This document shows, one piece after another, positions 1 through 60,783 of a stretch of DNA of 64,000 nucleotides; position 1 is the first letter of the stretch, and every line of letters starts with the position of its first letter. Both the position numbers and the translations under genes were made by a program. Under the pieces are notes generated by a model. The model saw nothing but the letters and a program-made list of their open reading frames with translations, searched no databases and had not been told where the DNA came from. The stretch covers positions 20,065 to 84,064 of the forward strand of contig JBDRET010000047.1 of the NCBI GenBank assembly GCA_043819495.1, written 5' to 3'. The stretch is from Candidatus Woesearchaeota archaeon. GTDB taxonomy: Archaea; Nanobdellota; Nanobdellia; Woesearchaeales; UBA11576.

Positions 1-675
1 GTATTGCTCTTTTATGCACTCATACTTACATTGTAAGTATTGATTCACTGTCTCATTCCATAACCAGCTCTGGTAAGAATGCACATACATGATACGTATC
101 TTGAGCGGAAGCTTCTTTAGAGCTCCAATATAGTCATTAGGCAGTTCTTCAAGATGCGAGTTCACGATATCCTCGCCCATGGTTTCACAGGCCTTTTTGA
201 AGTCCTTCTTGAGTATTGCCTCTCCTACTGTCCTGTTATTGGTAGAGAACCTCTGTTCATCATAATAGTTGATGAACTGCGACACCTCAGAAGGTGCTTT
301 GTCACAGTCACGCACGATTATCTCAAAGTCATTGCCGTCGAGATTTCCAAGGTTGATGGTTTTTTTCCCTCTTCCGATGTATTCGAGACGCATGCCCTCA
401 GAGTCAAATCTCTCGAATCGGTCAGCACCTATATGATTTCCTGGATCCCGTATCGATATTGCCTGTTTTGTCATAGCATGCTTGTCTTTGTTGCCTGCAA
501 AGCCGATATCCTTGGTCTTGCATCTTAGGAATCCGCTGATCTTCTCTAGTGCCCTGATCGTTGTGTACTGCCGTTTGTGCAGCCAGAAGTATGCGTACTC
601 TCCAGACTCGTCTAATTCGAGCGCTATACGCTCTGTGACCACGAAATCCTCAGGTTTGTCCTTTATTGTGTACAT
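1..675 (-). CDS. truD: tRNA pseudouridine synthase TruD/Pus7 family, N-terminal part (gene runs off the left edge)
   Basis: Absent from the ORF track because it has no stop in the window. My translation of the minus strand from the ATG at 675-673 gives MYTIKDKPEDFVVTE...IGFAGNKDKHAMTKQAISI...INYYDEQRFS. GFAGxKDKxAxTxQ and NYxxxQRF are TruD hallmarks. Confidence 0.8.
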   Translation of the reverse strand, partial: MYTIKDKPEDFVVTERIALELDESGEYAYFWLHKRQYTTIRALEKISGFLRCKTKDIGFAGNKDKHAMTKQAISIRDPGNHIGADRFERFDSEGMRLEYIGRGKKTINLGNLDGNDFEIIVRDCDKAPSEVSQFINYYDEQRFSTNNRTVGEAILKKDFKKACETMGEDIVNSHLEELPNDYIGALKKLPLKIRIMYVHSYQSWLWNETVNQYLQCKYECIKEQY

Positions 676-696: not shown

Positions 697-710
697 CCTT
701 ATAAATATTT
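697..710. promoter_or_regulatory. Shared TATA-like element (CCTTATAAATATTT) between divergent truD and tRNA-Arg
   Basis: AT-rich near-palindromic TATA box centred about 27 nt from the truD ATG (675) and about 26 nt from tRNA-Arg position +1 (730). Confidence 0.45.
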
Positions 711-729: not shown

Positions 730-943
730 GCACCCGTAGCGCAGCCTGGATACTTACGCCAGCATATAACTGCGTGGCCAAACAGCGCGAAACTCTTTAG
801 GGAACTATTGAGTGTGCAGCTGCCTCCTATTTCAAAGCAGGGCTTTGTAATCCTTCAAAAGCTCCGCTTTAGAAGTAAGCAGTAGGTCGGGAGTTCGAAA
901 TGCGAGCGACAATGGCGTTTGCACAAAATTCTCCCCGGGTGCG
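730..943 (+). tRNA. tRNA-Arg(CCU) interrupted by three putative introns (about 753-813, 830-877, 900-929)
   Basis: Hand-folded cloverleaf. Acceptor GCACCCG (730-736) pairs with CGGGTGC (936-942), discriminator G. D-stem GCGC (739-742) pairs with GTGC (814-817); D-loop AGCCTGGATA. Anticodon stem GCTGC (819-823) pairs with GCAGT (879-883); loop CTCCTA..A. Variable AGGTC. T-stem GGGAG (889-893) pairs with CTCCC (931-935); T-loop TTCGAA..T. The exons sum to 75 nt. Confidence 0.6.
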
Positions 944-963
944 TTTATTTTCATATATCCACC

Positions 964-2064
964 ATGAAACTGATCCATCTCTCTGAAGCATTGCGGATGT
1001 TCAAGCGTGCACGGAGAGTCAGCAAGCATGGCATCAGAAGATACTCTGGTTCTGAAGAAGAAATCTCAAGAGATATAATCCGTTCTTGTTGGAATAAGAA
1101 AGAGAAACACTTTCAGGTAAGCTCAGGGCACTTCACTGAGTTCTACTGCAGGGATTTTGGCATGTGTGCGGAAGCTCTTGTCAAGCTCGGCTACAGGAAG
1201 CAGGTCATACAGACATTGGACTATGCGCTCAGCAAATTCAAGAAGCACGGACGCATCACAACAAGCATCTCACCGCAAGGAAAATGCTTTGACTTCCCTT
1301 ACTATGGTGCTGATTCTCTGCCATTCATCGTCCATGCGTTGAAAGTTGCAAAGGCCAATCAATTAAATGAACAATATGATAGTTTTCTGACTAAAGAGAT
1401 TAAATTCTACTACGAGAAAGTCTTCGACAAAAAAACTCATCTCATAAGGCAGGACAAACACTTCTCATCCATGAAGGATTACGCAAAGCGAAGCTCTTCC
1501 TGCTACTCCAACTGCATGCTTTTCATGCTCGCAGATGACCTCGACTCTTTGAAGTTGAAGAATCCTTTCCCGAAGGGCAGGATTCAAAAGGAGATATTGA
1601 TTGCTTTTTGGAACGGTGATTACTTCTACGACGATACTTCTTTCACCAAGATAGTCACAGGTGACGCAAACACTTACCCGTTCTGGTGCGGTGTCACGAA
1701 TTCAGAGAAGGTGTTTGACCTCTGCATGAAGTCGATAGAGAAAGCAGGCCTCACAAGACCGTTTCCTCTGAAATATTCATCATCACCAGAGAAGGTGCAT
1801 AAGATGCATTTCCTTGAGGCATTCTCCGGAGGATATGAACGGGATTCGATCTGGATGCATCTTGGGCTCTGCTTCCTTGATGTAGTCAAGCGCTTTGACA
1901 GGAAGAGATTCGACACATACATGAAACAATATACTACTCTTATCAGAAAACACGGGAACTTCTTGGAAGTGTACGACGCTAATGGTCTCCCATTCCATAC
2001 TCCGTTCTACTTCACAGATGAGTCGATGAGTTGGGTGTCTAAGTATCTTGCTCTGAAGGACTAG
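964..2064 (+). CDS. Glycoside hydrolase-like (alpha/alpha)6-barrel protein (GDE_C/GH63-like), tentative
   Basis: ORF track 919..2064. The TTG at 919 lies inside the tRNA-Arg gene, so the first ATG (964) is preferred. Motifs: CRDFGMCAEALVKLG and DSIWMHLG. Confidence 0.45.
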   Translation: MKLIHLSEALRMFKRARRVSKHGIRRYSGSEEEISRDIIRSCWNKKEKHFQVSSGHFTEFYCRDFGMCAEALVKLGYRKQVIQTLDYALSKFKKHGRITTSISPQGKCFDFPYYGADSLPFIVHALKVAKANQLNEQYDSFLTKEIKFYYEKVFDKKTHLIRQDKHFSSMKDYAKRSSSCYSNCMLFMLADDLDSLKLKNPFPKGRIQKEILIAFWNGDYFYDDTSFTKIVTGDANTYPFWCGVTNSEKVFDLCMKSIEKAGLTRPFPLKYSSSPEKVHKMHFLEAFSGGYERDSIWMHLGLCFLDVVKRFDRKRFDTYMKQYTTLIRKHGNFLEVYDANGLPFHTPFYFTDESMSWVSKYLALKD

Positions 2065-2610: not shown

Positions 2611-4464
2611 TCACTGATTCAGCTTCTTCAACATTTCCATTATCTTCCTGCCTTCTGCTCTTCCTTTAAGCGCGCCCATGACCTTTCCTATCAATATCTT
2701 GAACTCTATCACGCCGCTCTGTTTGACTATCTTCTTAATCTCTGCCTCAAGCTCTACATCACTCAAAGGCGCATATTTGGAATAATCAACAGGATCACCT
2801 CTGCAGATAGTCAATAATATCTCTTCTACACTATCTTTCGTCAATTTTCCTGTATCAAGCAACCCAAATATCTTCTCGAAATGTGCATCTGAAAGCGCAG
2901 ACACATCGACATTGTACTGTCTCTTGAGATTCTTAGGAGCAGATATCATTGTCTCTGCGATGAATGCTGGCTTGACATTGCCAAACCGTTCAGTGAAGTC
3001 CTCAAACACCTCATGCTTGCCTGACTTGGATAGGTCCCGTGCAAGATCCTCTGCCAGATTATGTTTCTCTTTGAACCTGTCTTTCTTCTCAGTCAACAGT
3101 TCAGGCAATTCAATCCCGGAAACATCAGGTCTTATCGGTGGTATGTCAGTCTCAGGGTACATGCGAGCTGCCCCAGGCATCGGCCGCATGTATGACGTTG
3201 TCCCGTCCTGATTTGCTTTGCGTACCTCTCGTGGAACGCCAGAAAGGCAAAGTCGCGCTCTTTCTATGACATGTCCCATGGCAGTCTCTCCCTGTGCCTT
3301 GCCTGATACTATGATTGCGAATCCTTCATCCACTACACCGAGCTTCTTTTTGAGCCCTTGCAATTCAGCACTGCTGAACTTGTACTTCGCAAGGTCCTCA
3401 TCCGAGTGGATTATCCCTCCGATGCCTGCCTTGACTTTTCCATAATCAGAAAGTTCTGTGCCGAGTCTCTTCCCTGGTTGTGTCTCTTTGCCGAGCAATC
3501 CTGCAAATCCGGGTAATGTGAATGCGAGTGCGATATCCCCTTTCTTGATTGCAGCATTGACGAATTTACATTCGCTGTCTTTGAATATCTCTGAGACATC
3601 TGCTGACTTTGATCTATCCAATGCAGGTTTTCTTTTCTCAAGCTCTGCTTTCACAGCAACAAGAGCAAGCTGTCTCCTTGCTTCATTCTCGACAAGCGTA
3701 GGGATCATCTTGAGGTCTTGAGCTCCTTTTATCTCAATTCGCGTACCACCAACTACAGATACATTGACATCCTGCCTTATTGTGCCCAACCCGCGAGCAA
3801 CTTTTCCTGTAGAACGGAGTATCATCCCTATCTTCTCTGCTGCTGCCTTGCATTCTTCTGGAGAATTGATGTCAGGATCAGTCCCTATCTCGATCAATGG
3901 AGTTCCTAACCTATCCAATCGGTACACTACATATCGTCGTCCATCTGCATCGACCCCTTTCTCCATGTCTTTTGCAGCGTCCTCTTCTATGGATATCGTT
4001 GGCACTCCTATCTTCTTCCCTGCAACATCAATCCATCCACCGACTGCGACAAGGGCAGTCCTTTGGAATCCTGATGTATTGGAGCCATTGACCACTGTCT
4101 TTCGCATCACCTGCACCTGGTCCACGATGTCTGCATTCAGCATCTTTGAGACCTGAAGTACAGTGCGCAGTGCCTCTTCATTCATCGGGTGTGGTGGTTC
4201 TTCATCTAATTCCACCAGACAGGTGGTGTCAGAATAAGCTTCATATATGTAATATTCCTGCTTTCCCATCTCGTGCTTTGCAGCGACATCTATTGTTCCG
4301 GTCTCACCTGCAACAGCGCGTAACTCGCGACGTATTTTGATATCTGGCGCATCATCTCTCAATGATGAGGGGCAGTCACAGAATAGCTTACTTGTATCGA
4401 GCCTCTGGTGTATCTCGATGCCGCATTTGAGTCCTATCTTGGAATAGTCAAGCTTGTCTGTCAT
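2611..4464 (-). CDS. gatE: Glutamyl-tRNA(Gln) amidotransferase subunit E
   Basis: 617 aa. N-terminus GLKCGIEIHQRLDTSKLFCDCPS. Archaea-specific GatE, adjacent to gatD. Confidence 0.92.
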   Translation of the reverse strand: MTDKLDYSKIGLKCGIEIHQRLDTSKLFCDCPSSLRDDAPDIKIRRELRAVAGETGTIDVAAKHEMGKQEYYIYEAYSDTTCLVELDEEPPHPMNEEALRTVLQVSKMLNADIVDQVQVMRKTVVNGSNTSGFQRTALVAVGGWIDVAGKKIGVPTISIEEDAAKDMEKGVDADGRRYVVYRLDRLGTPLIEIGTDPDINSPEECKAAAEKIGMILRSTGKVARGLGTIRQDVNVSVVGGTRIEIKGAQDLKMIPTLVENEARRQLALVAVKAELEKRKPALDRSKSADVSEIFKDSECKFVNAAIKKGDIALAFTLPGFAGLLGKETQPGKRLGTELSDYGKVKAGIGGIIHSDEDLAKYKFSSAELQGLKKKLGVVDEGFAIIVSGKAQGETAMGHVIERARLCLSGVPREVRKANQDGTTSYMRPMPGAARMYPETDIPPIRPDVSGIELPELLTEKKDRFKEKHNLAEDLARDLSKSGKHEVFEDFTERFGNVKPAFIAETMISAPKNLKRQYNVDVSALSDAHFEKIFGLLDTGKLTKDSVEEILLTICRGDPVDYSKYAPLSDVELEAEIKKIVKQSGVIEFKILIGKVMGALKGRAEGRKIMEMLKKLNQ

Positions 4465-10399: not shown

Positions 10400-11620
10400 A
10401 TGGGATATATTAACTTTCAACGCCTGATGGTTCATATGCAAGATAGGAGTAATTTATCTAGATTGATTGAATCGAATCTTATTAATCATGCTGATTTACC
10501 GTCGACATTAATGGTTGAGATCAAAGACAGATTTAGAAAGAGATTGTTTGATGGATTATCTGTTTACAAACTTAATAGTATATTTCCAAAGCATTCAGTA
10601 TCTAGTTTCAAGAATTACAAGAGAGGTGCTTTTATTCCTGTATGTTTATTTGAAGAGTTAGTAAGATTAAAAAATATCGATATTGAGGAGGTGAACAGAG
10701 GCATACTTAAAGTCAAAAAAAGGCTTTGCGGGCTGCCCATAAAAATAAGTCTGCCTATTTGTTGTTCAGAGCAACTCGCTGAACTTGTTGGACATACATT
10801 TGGAGATGGACACATATCTGAAGGAGGCAGGTTTGTCTATGTTAACACGTCTGGAAGGCTGATTGAAAAGGTAAGACGCTTGGTATGCTATGTGTTCGGG
10901 GATTCAATATGGTGCAACTACCGAAAAAGAAGTGACGGATCTTTTTCTTTGCATTACCCTTCGGCAATAGGGGAACTTCTGGCGGGATTAGGTTGCATTA
11001 AGGGTAATAAGTTTAAACAGGTATTCGATGTTCCTGATTGGATCAAATCAGGAAGTCTGAACTTTAAAGCAGCATTTGTTCGTGCATTATTTGATGATGA
11101 AGGTTCCGTCAGTAATTCTAGAATTGCTATCAACATGGCGAAACAAGAATCTCTTGAATCGGGTCTAAGAACTTTCTTCAATTCTATTATCAGTATCTTG
11201 AACGATTTGAGAATTAGACCGGGAAATGTCGTTGTATGTGCTAGAAGGCAGAATAAGAATGGTGCTAGAGCAGTAGGATTACTTTTTGTTATATGTGGTC
11301 TAGTAGAACTCAAGAATTTTTCAGAGAATGTTGGATTTGTACATCCTTTAAAAAGAGAGAGGTTACAAAACTTGGTGACCTCTTTTATACAGCCTAATTA
11401 TCATGATGGTGAAGCGCGAACCATCATCTTAGATGAAATTCGAGGTTTAATGTCTACTAAAGAAATATGCGAAGTGATTGACAGATGTATGAAAACAACA
11501 AGGTATCACCTGAAACTGCTGGAAAAAGAAGGTAAGATTAAAAAAGTAGTGGCTCACAAGAGCAGATGGTTATGGCAATTAAGCGACCAATCAAAAGAAC
11601 GAAGTACTTCTCTCACTTAA
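10400..11620 (+). CDS. Free-standing LAGLIDADG homing-endonuclease-like protein with flanking HTH/wHTH regions
   Basis: 406 aa. Two LAGLIDADG blocks (LAELVGHTFGDGHIS and FVRALFDDEGSVS). C-terminal wHTH-like TRYHLKLLEKEGKIKK. Visibly more AT-rich than its neighbours. Confidence 0.7.
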   Translation: MGYINFQRLMVHMQDRSNLSRLIESNLINHADLPSTLMVEIKDRFRKRLFDGLSVYKLNSIFPKHSVSSFKNYKRGAFIPVCLFEELVRLKNIDIEEVNRGILKVKKRLCGLPIKISLPICCSEQLAELVGHTFGDGHISEGGRFVYVNTSGRLIEKVRRLVCYVFGDSIWCNYRKRSDGSFSLHYPSAIGELLAGLGCIKGNKFKQVFDVPDWIKSGSLNFKAAFVRALFDDEGSVSNSRIAINMAKQESLESGLRTFFNSIISILNDLRIRPGNVVVCARRQNKNGARAVGLLFVICGLVELKNFSENVGFVHPLKRERLQNLVTSFIQPNYHDGEARTIILDEIRGLMSTKEICEVIDRCMKTTRYHLKLLEKEGKIKKVVAHKSRWLWQLSDQSKERSTSLT

Positions 11621-14900: not shown

Positions 14901-15317
14901 ATGATGGAAAAATATAAGTTCTTTGACAAGATAACCTCTGACGTATTGTTTGAGGCATACGGGAAAGATCTGGCAGAAGTATTTGTCAATGCAGCTGAAG
15001 CGATGTTCTCAGTGATGTGCAAGATTGAACAGGTAGAGGCCAAAGAAGGGCATACTGTTGAAGTGAGATCTGATTCTACAGAGGGATTGATGGTAGAGTG
15101 GCTTCAGACACTCATAGCAGAAGTGGATATCCAGGAGATGTTCTTCTCAAGATTCGAGATCATTGAGATTGATGAGACTCACCTCAAGGCAACGATCCAC
15201 GGCGAGTCGATATCTGCTGAGAAAGGTGAGACTGTCGTGAAAGCTGTTACGTATCATCAATATGAATTCAAGAAGACTGAGTATGGTTATATGTGCAGGG
15301 TGAGTCTGGATATCTGA
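14901..15317 (+). CDS. Archease (activator of the RtcB tRNA-splicing ligase)
   Basis: ORF track starts at TTG 14895; the ATG at 14901 is preferred. MEKYKFFDKITSDVLFEAYGKDLAEVF...VKAVTYHQYEF matches the archease pattern. Confidence 0.8.
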   Translation: MMEKYKFFDKITSDVLFEAYGKDLAEVFVNAAEAMFSVMCKIEQVEAKEGHTVEVRSDSTEGLMVEWLQTLIAEVDIQEMFFSRFEIIEIDETHLKATIHGESISAEKGETVVKAVTYHQYEFKKTEYGYMCRVSLDI

Positions 15318-22586: not shown

Positions 22587-22675
22587 GCGCTGGTAGTATA
22601 GGGGTAGTATCACGGCCTTCCAAGCGTTATGCGCGAAGTGAGCCGTTGGCCTGGGTTCAAATCCCAGCCAGCGCA
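22587..22675 (+). tRNA. tRNA-Gly(UCC) with an 18-nt canonical intron (22623-22640)
   Basis: Acceptor GCGCTGG/CCAGCGC, discriminator A. Anticodon stem ACGGC/GCCGT, loop CTTCCA..A. T-arm CTGGG TTCAAAT CCCAG. TTTTATAAAT lies about 30 nt upstream. Confidence 0.85.
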
Positions 22676-49328: not shown

Positions 49329-49441
49329 AGCGGGGTAGGGCAGCCAGGAGTGCCCGAAGGGCTCATAACGCAAAGGTTCCCTTTCCGGAACCTCCTGCGG
49401 AGGTAACCCTTAGGTCGATGGTTCAAATCCATCCCCCGCTA
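49329..49441 (+). tRNA. Initiator tRNA-Met(CAU) with a 38-nt canonical intron (49368-49405)
   Basis: A1:U72 acceptor AGCGGGG/CCCCGCT. D-arm GGGC-AGCCAGGAGT-GCCC. Anticodon stem AAGGG/CCCTT with three G:C pairs, loop CTCATA..A. T-arm GATGG TTCAAAT CCATC. Confidence 0.85.
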
Positions 49442-60342: not shown

Positions 60343-60513
60343 GCACTAAAGTGAGGACTTATAAAACAATAATTTTAGGACACTAAAGACCGATTTGCGG
60401 TCTTTGCGTGTGAGCGCGGTGTTGACCGTTTAGAAGATGAATAAATCAAGGTCTCTAAGCATAATGTTTATAAATCGCCTATTTTTCTTGATTTTTACCC
60501 TGATTACCCAGTT

Positions 60514-60597
60514 GCGGGGGTGCCGGAGTGGTCAAACGGGCTACGTTCAGGGCGTAGTAGCTTAGTGCTTACGAGGGTTCAAACCCCTTCTCCCGCA
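60514..60597 (+). tRNA. tRNA-Leu(CAG), no intron
   Basis: Acceptor GCGGGGG/CTCCCGC (one G:U), discriminator A. D-arm GCC-GGAGTGGTCAAAC-GGG. Anticodon arm CTACG-TTCAGGG-CGTAG. Long variable arm. T-arm GAGGG TTCAAAC CCCTT. Confidence 0.88.
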
Positions 60598-60783
60598 GTT
60601 TAATTGTTTTATGTGGGTTACAGCGTCCCGTTGAATGTAGTGAAATGGGACTGGGTTGCGCGTATCAAATGAGCAAGATCATTTGCGAGTCGTTTCAAAC
60701 CCCTTCTCCCGCATTGAACAGAGTGAGATGTGGGGAAGGTTCCAGAAATCTCTGATTTCTGATATCTTCTCCCGCAGTTTAAT
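60578..60783 (+). repeat. Three nested direct copies of the tRNA-Leu 3' end
   Basis: TTCAAACCCCTTCTCCCGCA at 60578-60597 (tRNA) and 60694-60713 (20/20). CTTCTCCCGCAGTTTAAT at 60587-60604 and 60766-60783 (18/18). Confidence 0.85.

Follow-up and report, generated by a model that had tools for sequence, protein, structure and literature searches.

Transfer RNA (tRNA) genes with several introns, among them introns at non-canonical sites bounded by bulge-helix-bulge (BHB) motifs, are established in Thermoproteales, Thaumarchaeota, ARMAN and Cyanidioschyzon merolae. We consider here, against that background, a stretch of 64,000 nucleotides (nt) from a Candidatus Woesearchaeota archaeon, called the window below, in which positions 730–943 of the forward strand very probably constitute a genuine tRNA-Arg(CCU) gene of five exons and four protein-spliced BHB introns. 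Archaeal tRNA genes are described as holding up to three introns (reviews and the tRNAscan-SE 2.0 paper; PMC4390854, PMC8450103), and for Pyrobaculum calidifontis, a member of Thermoproteales, Sugahara et al. (2007/2008; summarised in PMC8450103 and PMC4390854) give 71 introns in 46 tRNA genes. The mechanism considered here is therefore of a known kind, while the architecture, four introns with a 7-nt exon in Woesearchaeota, appears to be new. We are slightly more inclined to believe than to doubt that these are the most fragmented cis-spliced tRNA genes described, given their four BHB introns, the 7-nt exon, the occurrence in at least three diverged lineages and the independent presence or absence of the introns; our literature search found no report of a four-intron tRNA gene, although one outside the searchable literature is possible.

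The locus resembles the Thermoproteales genes in that its introns lie so close together that one may need to be removed before the next motif can form, in that standard tRNA finders miss it, and in that its introns come and go between relatives. It differs from them in having four introns and a 7-nt exon where up to three introns are described (PMC8450103, PMC4390854), in its host, a DPANN Woesearchaeote instead of a crenarchaeote with an (alpha-beta)2 EndA splicing endonuclease, and in showing within the window no multi-copy intron family comparable to the intron transposition families of Thermoproteales (PMC4090602). A second point of reference is ARMAN-2 (Candidatus Micrarchaeum), which has an epsilon2 EndA and for which Fujishima et al. 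(2011; cited in PMC5829648) describe an hBH intron at 59/60 of pre-tRNA-Cys. As in ARMAN-2, the host is a DPANN archaeon, an intron lies in the T-loop at 59/60, and there are relaxed motifs that need an endonuclease of broad specificity; unlike the hBH motif of ARMAN-2, the 59/60 motif here is nearly a full hBHBh'. The original prediction for this locus, made from the letters of the DNA and proposing a tRNA-Arg(CCU) gene with three introns, had mentioned ultrasmall archaea among the known carriers of such introns, which fits the host.

In Methanopyrus kandleri, pre-tRNA-Glu(UUC) carries an HBh' intron in the D-loop together with a canonical intron (PMC5829648). The present gene likewise combines a relaxed D-loop intron with one at 37/38 and would leave a very short internal exon fragment after cleavage, but M. 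kandleri is a euryarchaeal host with two introns in the gene rather than four, and its EndA cuts the relaxed motif poorly. The tRNA-Ile(UAU) gene of C. merolae, whose introns interrupt the D-stem and the T-loop as well as position 37/38 (PMC3728597), shows nearly the same spread over the D-arm, anticodon loop and T-loop. That system is different in belonging to a eukaryotic nucleus, in having at most three introns per gene and in including permuted genes, of which none was seen here. Experiments on it showed that the D-arm and T-loop introns are removed before the 37/38 intron (PMC3728597), and by analogy we suspect that splicing here may be ordered in a similar way.

Related loci and the probable five-exon gene

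The stretch 730–943, 214 bases long, begins with GCACCCGTAGCGCAGCCTGGATA and ends with TCTCCCCGGGTGCG. Every piece of a tRNA-Arg(CCU) is present within it, as the original prediction held, and, again as expected there, standard finders miss the unspliced locus: ARAGORN reported no tRNA, Rfam reported none at its gathering threshold or at E ≤ 10, and the only Rfam matches over 600–1100 at E ≤ 10 were chance ones to small nucleolar RNA and microRNA models. The proposed class of interruption, several short archaeal BHB-type introns with non-canonical sites included, also stands. Introns make up about 65% of the gene, and the exons measure 22, 7, 10, 22 and 14 nt (Table 1). Joined, they give a product of 75 nt with a 7-base-pair (bp) acceptor stem, a 4-bp D-stem (GCGC/GCGC), 5-bp anticodon and T-stems, G18G19, G26, an A27-U43 pair, and the T-loop UUCGAAU; the anticodon loop CUCCUAA has 7 nt, U33 and a purine at 37, the D-loop AGCCUGGAUA has A20, and these loop columns are invariant in the homologue alignment. 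The predicted mature junctions are GGAU/AGCGCGA/CUGCC, CCUA/AGCAG and UUCGAA/UCUCC, slashes marking the joints; CCA is not encoded at the 3' end. A20 and C35, which we take to be classical ArgRS identity elements, are both in the mature tRNA.

The evidence that carries this reading is comparative. Eleven further loci, ten distinct sequences, were collected from related Woesearchaeota, partly from contigs with homologues of the neighbouring open reading frame (ORF) and partly from metagenome contigs scanned with a 20-mer of exon 1, and all eleven splice to a near-identical 75-nt tRNA-Arg(CCU). The full set of four introns is common to three diverged lineages, those of the window, L051 and L064 (= L065). 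The 27/28 intron alone is missing from L047, L053 (= L062) and L057, the 27/28 and 37/38 introns from L046, and the 27/28 and 59/60 introns from L055/L060; L066 has only the 27/28 and 37/38 introns, and L048 only the one in the D-loop. Each intron is missing from at least one homologue, with contiguous exon sequence left at the site: AGCGCGACTGCCTCCTA is contiguous in L046, L047, L048, L053, L055/L060 and L057, CTCCTAAGCAGT in L046 and L048, which have no intron 3, and the D-loop of L066 is uninterrupted (AGCTTGGATAGCGC). The five-exon 75-mer of the window is identical to the spliced product of L051 and differs from that of the one-intron L048 in T-stem pairs only, and all relatives contain the mature sequence ...GGATAGCGCGACTGCC.... 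In a set of eight distinct spliced sequences, 100% of the 168 cells of the cloverleaf are paired, with seven pairs changed on both sides, a covariation reached by none of 500 shuffles, while slid registers gave 35–50% pairing. Two homologues with fewer interruptions, L066 (43.9 bits) and L048 (37 bits), are recognised by the tRNA model of Rfam. On these comparative sequence data, chance is ruled out for the split tRNA-Arg(CCU). A search with the exon-4 22-mer (878–899) of species-representative genomes, the window organism not being among them, gave 44 loci; these are uninformative on introns because all have uninterrupted T-loops and belong to unrelated bacteria or to other DPANN and archaea.

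The original prediction placed three introns in the gene (753–813, 830–877 and 900–929), taking GUGC at 814–817 as the 3' strand of the D-stem, with A26, a G27-U43 pair and a mature junction of GGAUA to GUGCAGCUGCC. Its spliced product (730–752, 814–829, 878–899 and 930–943) does fold into a cloverleaf of 75 nt that ARAGORN calls tRNA-Arg(cct), and G27-U43 is present in other DPANN tRNAs. Its D-loop sequence was right, and its introns at 37/38 (48 nt) and 59/60 (30 nt) lie exactly where it put them. The 61-nt first intron, in contrast, resolves into two, 752–783 and 791–819, because AGCGCGACTGCCTCCTA, contiguous in seven relatives, is split here by a BHB-bounded insert of 29 nt, which brings the count to four. 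Also contiguous in seven relatives is AGCGCGACTGCC, and the exon 2 columns are invariant in the alignment, columns 24–29 (GCGCGA) in all eight distinct spliced homologues. The bases equivalent to GTGCAG read GTGCGTAA or GTGCGCAA in L051, L064 and L066 and are unusable as exon; in that role they would leave the D-stem and the anticodon stem three bases apart. The GTGC at 814–817 belongs instead to the central helix of the 27/28 motif, as its intronic strand, pairing with GCGC at 785–788, and the mature GUGC, A26 and G27-U43 are to be corrected to GCGC/GCGC, G26 and A27-U43. Neither do the junctions of the 61-nt intron form a BHB: at 752/813 the outer helix is weak, a G.G mismatch disrupts the central helix, the inner helix has 1 bp, and the 3' site 813/814 falls inside a continuous helix in the predicted fold, whereas a strict BHB bounds 791–819. 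Of the folding expected at the three proposed junctions, what was found is a relaxed motif at 37/38 and a near-canonical one at 59/60, and none at 752/753 with 813/814. We consider three introns to be barely credible and continue with the four-intron gene.

Transcription signals are in keeping with a functional locus. The TATA-box-like element at 699–706 is a putative promoter, judged from its sequence, and the block AAAGCCTTATAAATATTT is kept upstream of the homologous tRNA in L047, L048 and L053, as is AAAGTCTTATAAATATTT in L066. The T-rich run directly after the gene is likely a transcription stop of archaeal type, and T-runs also stand 3' of the gene in L046, L048, L064 and others. The order of TruD, the tRNA and the 366-aa ORF, with TruD pointing away from the tRNA on one side and the ORF on the other, is kept in many homologous loci.

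Table 1. Coordinates in the window of the tRNA-Arg(CCU) gene, its signals and associated genes
Feature	Position	Strand	Description
TruD	1–675	-	flanking gene
TATA-box-like TTATAAAT	699–706	+	starts 31 nt upstream of tRNA base 1; purine-rich AGAAAGCC before it
Exon 1	730–751	+	22 nt; tRNA positions 1–20a; acceptor 5' strand, U8 A9, D-stem 5' strand GCGC, D-loop AGCCUGGAU; near or fully identical in 11 homologous loci
Intron 1	752–783	+	32 nt; D-loop 20a/21; relaxed BHB (HBh'-like)
Exon 2, micro-exon AGCGCGA	784–790	+	7 nt; A21, D-stem 3' strand GCGC (22–25), G26, A27
Intron 2	791–819	+	29 nt; anticodon stem 27/28; strict BHB core
Exon 3 CUGCCUCCUA	820–829	+	10 nt; anticodon stem 28–31, loop 32–37, anticodon CCU
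Intron 3	830–877	+	48 nt; canonical 37/38; relaxed BHB
Exon 4	878–899	+	22 nt; A38, anticodon-stem 3' strand, variable loop AGGUC, T-stem 5' strand GGGAG, T-loop UUCGAA (positions 54–59)
Intron 4	900–929	+	30 nt; T-loop 59/60; near-canonical hBHBh'
Exon 5	930–943	+	14 nt; U60, T-stem 3' strand CUCCC, acceptor 3' strand CGGGUGC, discriminator G73
T-rich run TTTATTTTC	944–952	+	directly after the discriminator
366-aa ORF	964–2064		flanking gene, downstream of the tRNA
Archease	14901–15317	+	trans-acting; RtcB tRNA ligase cofactor; PF01951, E = 4.2e-36, full length

Splice motifs at the four introns

In the BHB geometry applied here, exon bases X-5 to X-2 pair with intron bases N-5 to N-2, the cut falls after the second base of each 3-nt bulge (marked by a slash below), and the outer and inner flanking helices are denoted h and h'. 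The 18-nt intron of a tRNA-Gly in the window served as positive control, with an outer helix of 5 bp, a 4/4 central helix and an inner helix of 4 bp. A scan over all (p,q) site pairs within 730–943 returned the strict motif 790/791 with 819/820, that of intron 2. Its central helix is 4/4 (G785-C817, C786-G816, G787-U815, C788-G814), the bulges are GA/A and AG/C, the inner helix has 4 bp (ACUC/GAGU) and the outer helix 2 bp, and the local fold of the region has a z-score of -3.0. Taken alone the motif is at about chance level, one being expected per roughly 20,000 pairs, and it was accepted because the homologues confirmed its boundaries. Among the four carriers (the window, L051, L064 and L066) 92% of the cells are paired against 30–57% in slid registers, and the central helix is 100% paired with alternation of GC and GU while the intron sequences themselves differ. 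In intron 4 the 5-bp T-stem serves as outer helix, the central helix is 3/4 with one C.A, the bulges are AA/A and AU/U, and at least 6 bp make up the inner helix; for the local fold, z is -3.4. Over the seven carriers 91% of the cells are paired (30–64% when slid), all seven pairs of the inner helix show compensatory changes, and six of the seven carriers combine the T-stem and the central helix with 5 bp or more in the inner helix.

Introns 1 and 3 have both 3-nt bulges in register and their outer helices present, with one flanking helix weak in each. In intron 3 the 5-bp anticodon stem acts as outer helix, three of the four central pairs form (C32-G, U33-A and C35-G, with C34.A as mismatch), and the bulges are UA/U and UA/A; the motif is relaxed in most carriers, while L047 has a minimal intron of 15 nt with a strict BHB. 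We also considered by hand the alternative anticodons CGU and AGU that shifted 37/38 splicing would generate, and dismissed them because no BHB motif forms in those registers. Self-splicing of the group I or group II type was likewise rejected, the inserts having only 29–48 nt and no ribozyme model of Rfam matching over 600–1100 at E ≤ 10.

For intron 1, we prefer the sites 751/752 and 783/784, which give a 3/4 central helix (U747-A780, G748-C779, G749-C778), bulges AU/A and AC/A, two outer pairs (G744-C786, C745-G785) and an inner helix of 2 + 4 bp that includes one bulged U. This central helix recurs in the local minimum-energy fold, there with a 4-nt bulge and a 6-bp inner helix, and in L051, L053 and L064 introns at the same site have inner helices of up to 7–8 bp with compensatory changes. 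By sequence the boundaries could equally be 753–784, so that the 21/22 site originally claimed is equivalent to 20a/21. A cut at 19/20 (749/750 and 780/781), leaving an 11-nt D-loop AGCCUGGAACA in a gene that still has four introns, deserves consideration, because L046, L048, L055 and L057 have their D-loop intron there with a 4/4 central helix GCCU/GGG(C/U), and the same register in the window reaches 3/4 by hand pairing (G744-C778, C745-G777, C746-G776). In that register, however, the window offers no outer pair and one inner pair, against the two outer and 2 + 4 inner pairs of the 751/783 register, which also agrees with the local minimum-energy fold. Moreover, the nearest architectures, L051, L064 and L053, are spliceable only at 20a/21, giving AGCCUGGAUA, and the intron-free D-loop of L066 reads AGCUUGGAUA. 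We therefore think a 19/20 cut in the window quite unlikely and keep to 20a/21.

Several considerations weigh against the four-intron gene and should be set beside this evidence. Introns 1 and 3 have relaxed motifs only, each with one central mismatch, and the inner helix of intron 3 is out of register. The BHB conformers lie 5–10 kcal/mol above the local minimum-energy folds by nearest-neighbour energies, as would be expected of bulged motifs that are selected by a protein; with such energies, it is chiefly the comparison with relatives that supports the motifs of introns 1 and 3. The region of intron 1 is no more stable than shuffled sequence (z = -0.6), and its exact boundaries are the least certain part of the architecture. 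The covariation score of intron 2, from four sequences, was reached by 20 of 500 shuffles. A Pfam search of 43 window ORFs, together with the Pfam labels in the gene tables of L001, L069 and L070, contigs of the same genome, covered roughly 80 kb and revealed no EndA. Finally, we infer transcription and splicing themselves from the DNA.

Some of these points would also suit a decaying pseudogene, a tRNA-Arg(CCU) broken by insertions while AGG is read by tRNA-Arg(UCU) or another copy: half of the motifs are relaxed, the minimum-energy folds are not the BHB conformers, and the roughly 80 kb examined yielded no EndA. tRNA-Arg(CCU) is dispensable in some organisms, which we count in favour of decay. 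Yet the exons are 95% identical across lineages in which the neighbouring protein is 55–82% identical, the changes in stems are compensatory, and the insert boundaries hold BHB geometry with covariation. The promoter block, the T-run and the synteny are conserved, and the four-intron architecture persists in the window, L051 and L064. A pseudogene seems to us a very improbable explanation, and we proceed with a gene that is spliced.

Proposed splicing order and intron turnover

If the four-intron gene is spliced by the usual archaeal route, a single precursor would run from the TATA box at 699–706 to the T-run at 944, EndA would cut within both 3-nt bulges of each BHB motif, RtcB with archease would join the 2',3'-cyclic-phosphate and 5'-OH ends, and CCA would be added after ligation. 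Ordered rounds of cutting and ligation are probably needed, because the outer helix of intron 1 and the central helix of intron 2 compete for G785 and C786, and because the 7-nt exon is held by the 4-bp D-stem alone. As both motifs use G785/C786, those of introns 1 and 2 cannot coexist. The well-formed introns 2 and 4 would be expected to leave before the relaxed introns 1 and 3; ordered splicing has been described for closely spaced introns elsewhere (PMC8450103). As to the machinery, the archease gene noted in the original prediction was recovered by Pfam at the place given (Table 1). RtcB is not among the 43 window ORFs scanned, where archease is the only one of the pair, but a gene for it (PF01139) lies about 0.7 kb past the window end, at 3953–5356 of L070, on contig JAZDHU010000019.1, which overlaps the window end. 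Relaxed motifs are said to require an (alpha-beta)2 or epsilon2 EndA; the epsilon2 form is known only from relatives of Micrarchaeum, other DPANN archaea having an alpha4-type enzyme with an 'L3' loop, and DPANN archaea whose alpha4 EndA carries this loop show increased disruption of tRNA genes (PMC5829648).

The independent presence and absence of the introns among relatives indicates that they were gained or lost on short evolutionary timescales. In a neighbour-joining tree of the adjacent ORF, which we take as a rough guide only, L046, without introns 2 and 3, is placed beside the window, while intron 2 is present in L064 and L066, which are more distant. The intron 2 sequences share common ends, AAUYC... 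and ...GGGUGCGYAA, and are therefore homologous, repeated loss being the simplest reading. The other introns have more tangled affinities: intron 3 of the window is 94% identical to that of L051 over 36 nt, and its intron 4 is 96% identical to that of L046 over 24 nt, whereas intron 4 of L051 is unrelated to the window's and belongs to the same sequence family as that of L053. From their sequences, this suggests a mosaic ancestry, with recombination or intron replacement between lineages. The D-loop intron stands at 19/20 in L046, L048, L055 and L057 (central helix GCCU/GGGY) and at 20a/21 in the window, L051, L053 and L064 (CUGG/CCNN), an offset of 2 nt that would reflect either intron sliding or independent insertions. 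A search of the window and all fetched loci for further copies of the four introns returned the orthologous introns only and thus no sign of a multi-copy mobile intron.

Should the reading be correct, the loci form a natural series for BHB intron gain, loss, 2-base shift (19/20 versus 20a/21) and exchange by recombination, and they would show how the endonuclease and ligase handle a precursor in obligatory order. For mechanism, since splice motifs overlap and the micro-exon is held by 4 bp, cutting and ligation would have to proceed in ordered cycles. For evolution, a series of one to four introns at one syntenic locus is unusually clean test material for gain and loss models, and the same series bears on co-evolution with endonuclease specificity in DPANN archaea. 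For annotation, the isoacceptor may look missing in DPANN genomes, which would affect inferences of completeness and codon usage.

We note that intron size also varies. Introns of the window have 29–48 nt, and intron 3 is larger in L053 (73 nt), in L064 (2265–2333, 69 nt) and in L057 (1684–1746, 63 nt). In these three, motifs that resemble box C (GATGA / TGATGA) and box D motifs (CTGA) lie close to the ends of intron 3, without counterpart in the 48-nt intron 3 of the window. C/D-box guide RNAs occur in some archaeal tRNA introns, which these resemble; Rfam gave no match at E ≤ 0.01 for them.

Genomic setting and side observations

The 366-aa protein encoded next to the tRNA is 100% identical to an NCBI protein of 'Candidatus Woesearchaeota archaeon', and the tRNA locus recurs base for base on contig JAZDHU010000063.1 of assembly GCA_043805635.1, three contigs of which (JAZDHU010000063, ...25 and ...19) are spanned by the window, so that the window represents a more contiguous assembly of that organism. 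Further neighbours are a dCTP-deaminase-like gene and GatE/GatD. A 406-aa ORF at 10400–11620 (+) has a weak match to LAGLIDADG_3 (E = 2.9e-05) and one to a FaeA-like helix-turn-helix, and may encode a protein derived from a homing endonuclease; no link to the tRNA was seen. About 4.4 kb beyond the end of the window there is a Y1-transposase gene (L070, 7714–8160).

In several relatives the last 11 nt of the tRNA (for example CCTCGGGTGCG) are repeated about 47–100 nt downstream, with a T-run after the second copy only. The intervening element is found in L047 (about 2489–2557), directly 3' of the tRNA in L053 and L062 (minus strand), in L055 and L060, and in L063 (1–200, two tandem copies), and the start of one stands at the contig end of L051. 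It opens with a conserved T(A)GCGAAGC; one stretch of it is complementary to the acceptor 3' strand, and its hairpin shows compensatory changes. Together with the second copy it folds like an acceptor/T-arm minihelix, with double changes in 8 of the 16 predicted pairs. The element is absent from the window, and when that of the relatives was tried as a fifth BHB intron no register gave a BHB. Candidate explanations are a fifth interruption, a structured 3' trailer and an insertion scar with target duplication; if the 47-nt element is also excised, a fifth interruption would have to be counted in the genes of those relatives.

Three of the four tRNA genes in the window bear introns, and a T-arm scan for hidden tRNAs found none in the window beyond Gly, initiator Met and Leu. 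The tRNA-Gly(UCC) at 22587–22675 has an 18-nt canonical intron (22623–22640) in a perfect hBHBh' and is found by ARAGORN and Rfam, and ARAGORN finds a tRNA-Leu(CAG) at 60513–60598. The initiator-type tRNA-Met(CAU) at 49329–49441, with A1-U72, is found by Rfam and missed by ARAGORN; it has an intron of about 38 nt near 37/38 (about 49368–49405), whose splice motif is relaxed, with a 3-bp central helix CUC/GAG and 4-nt bulges.

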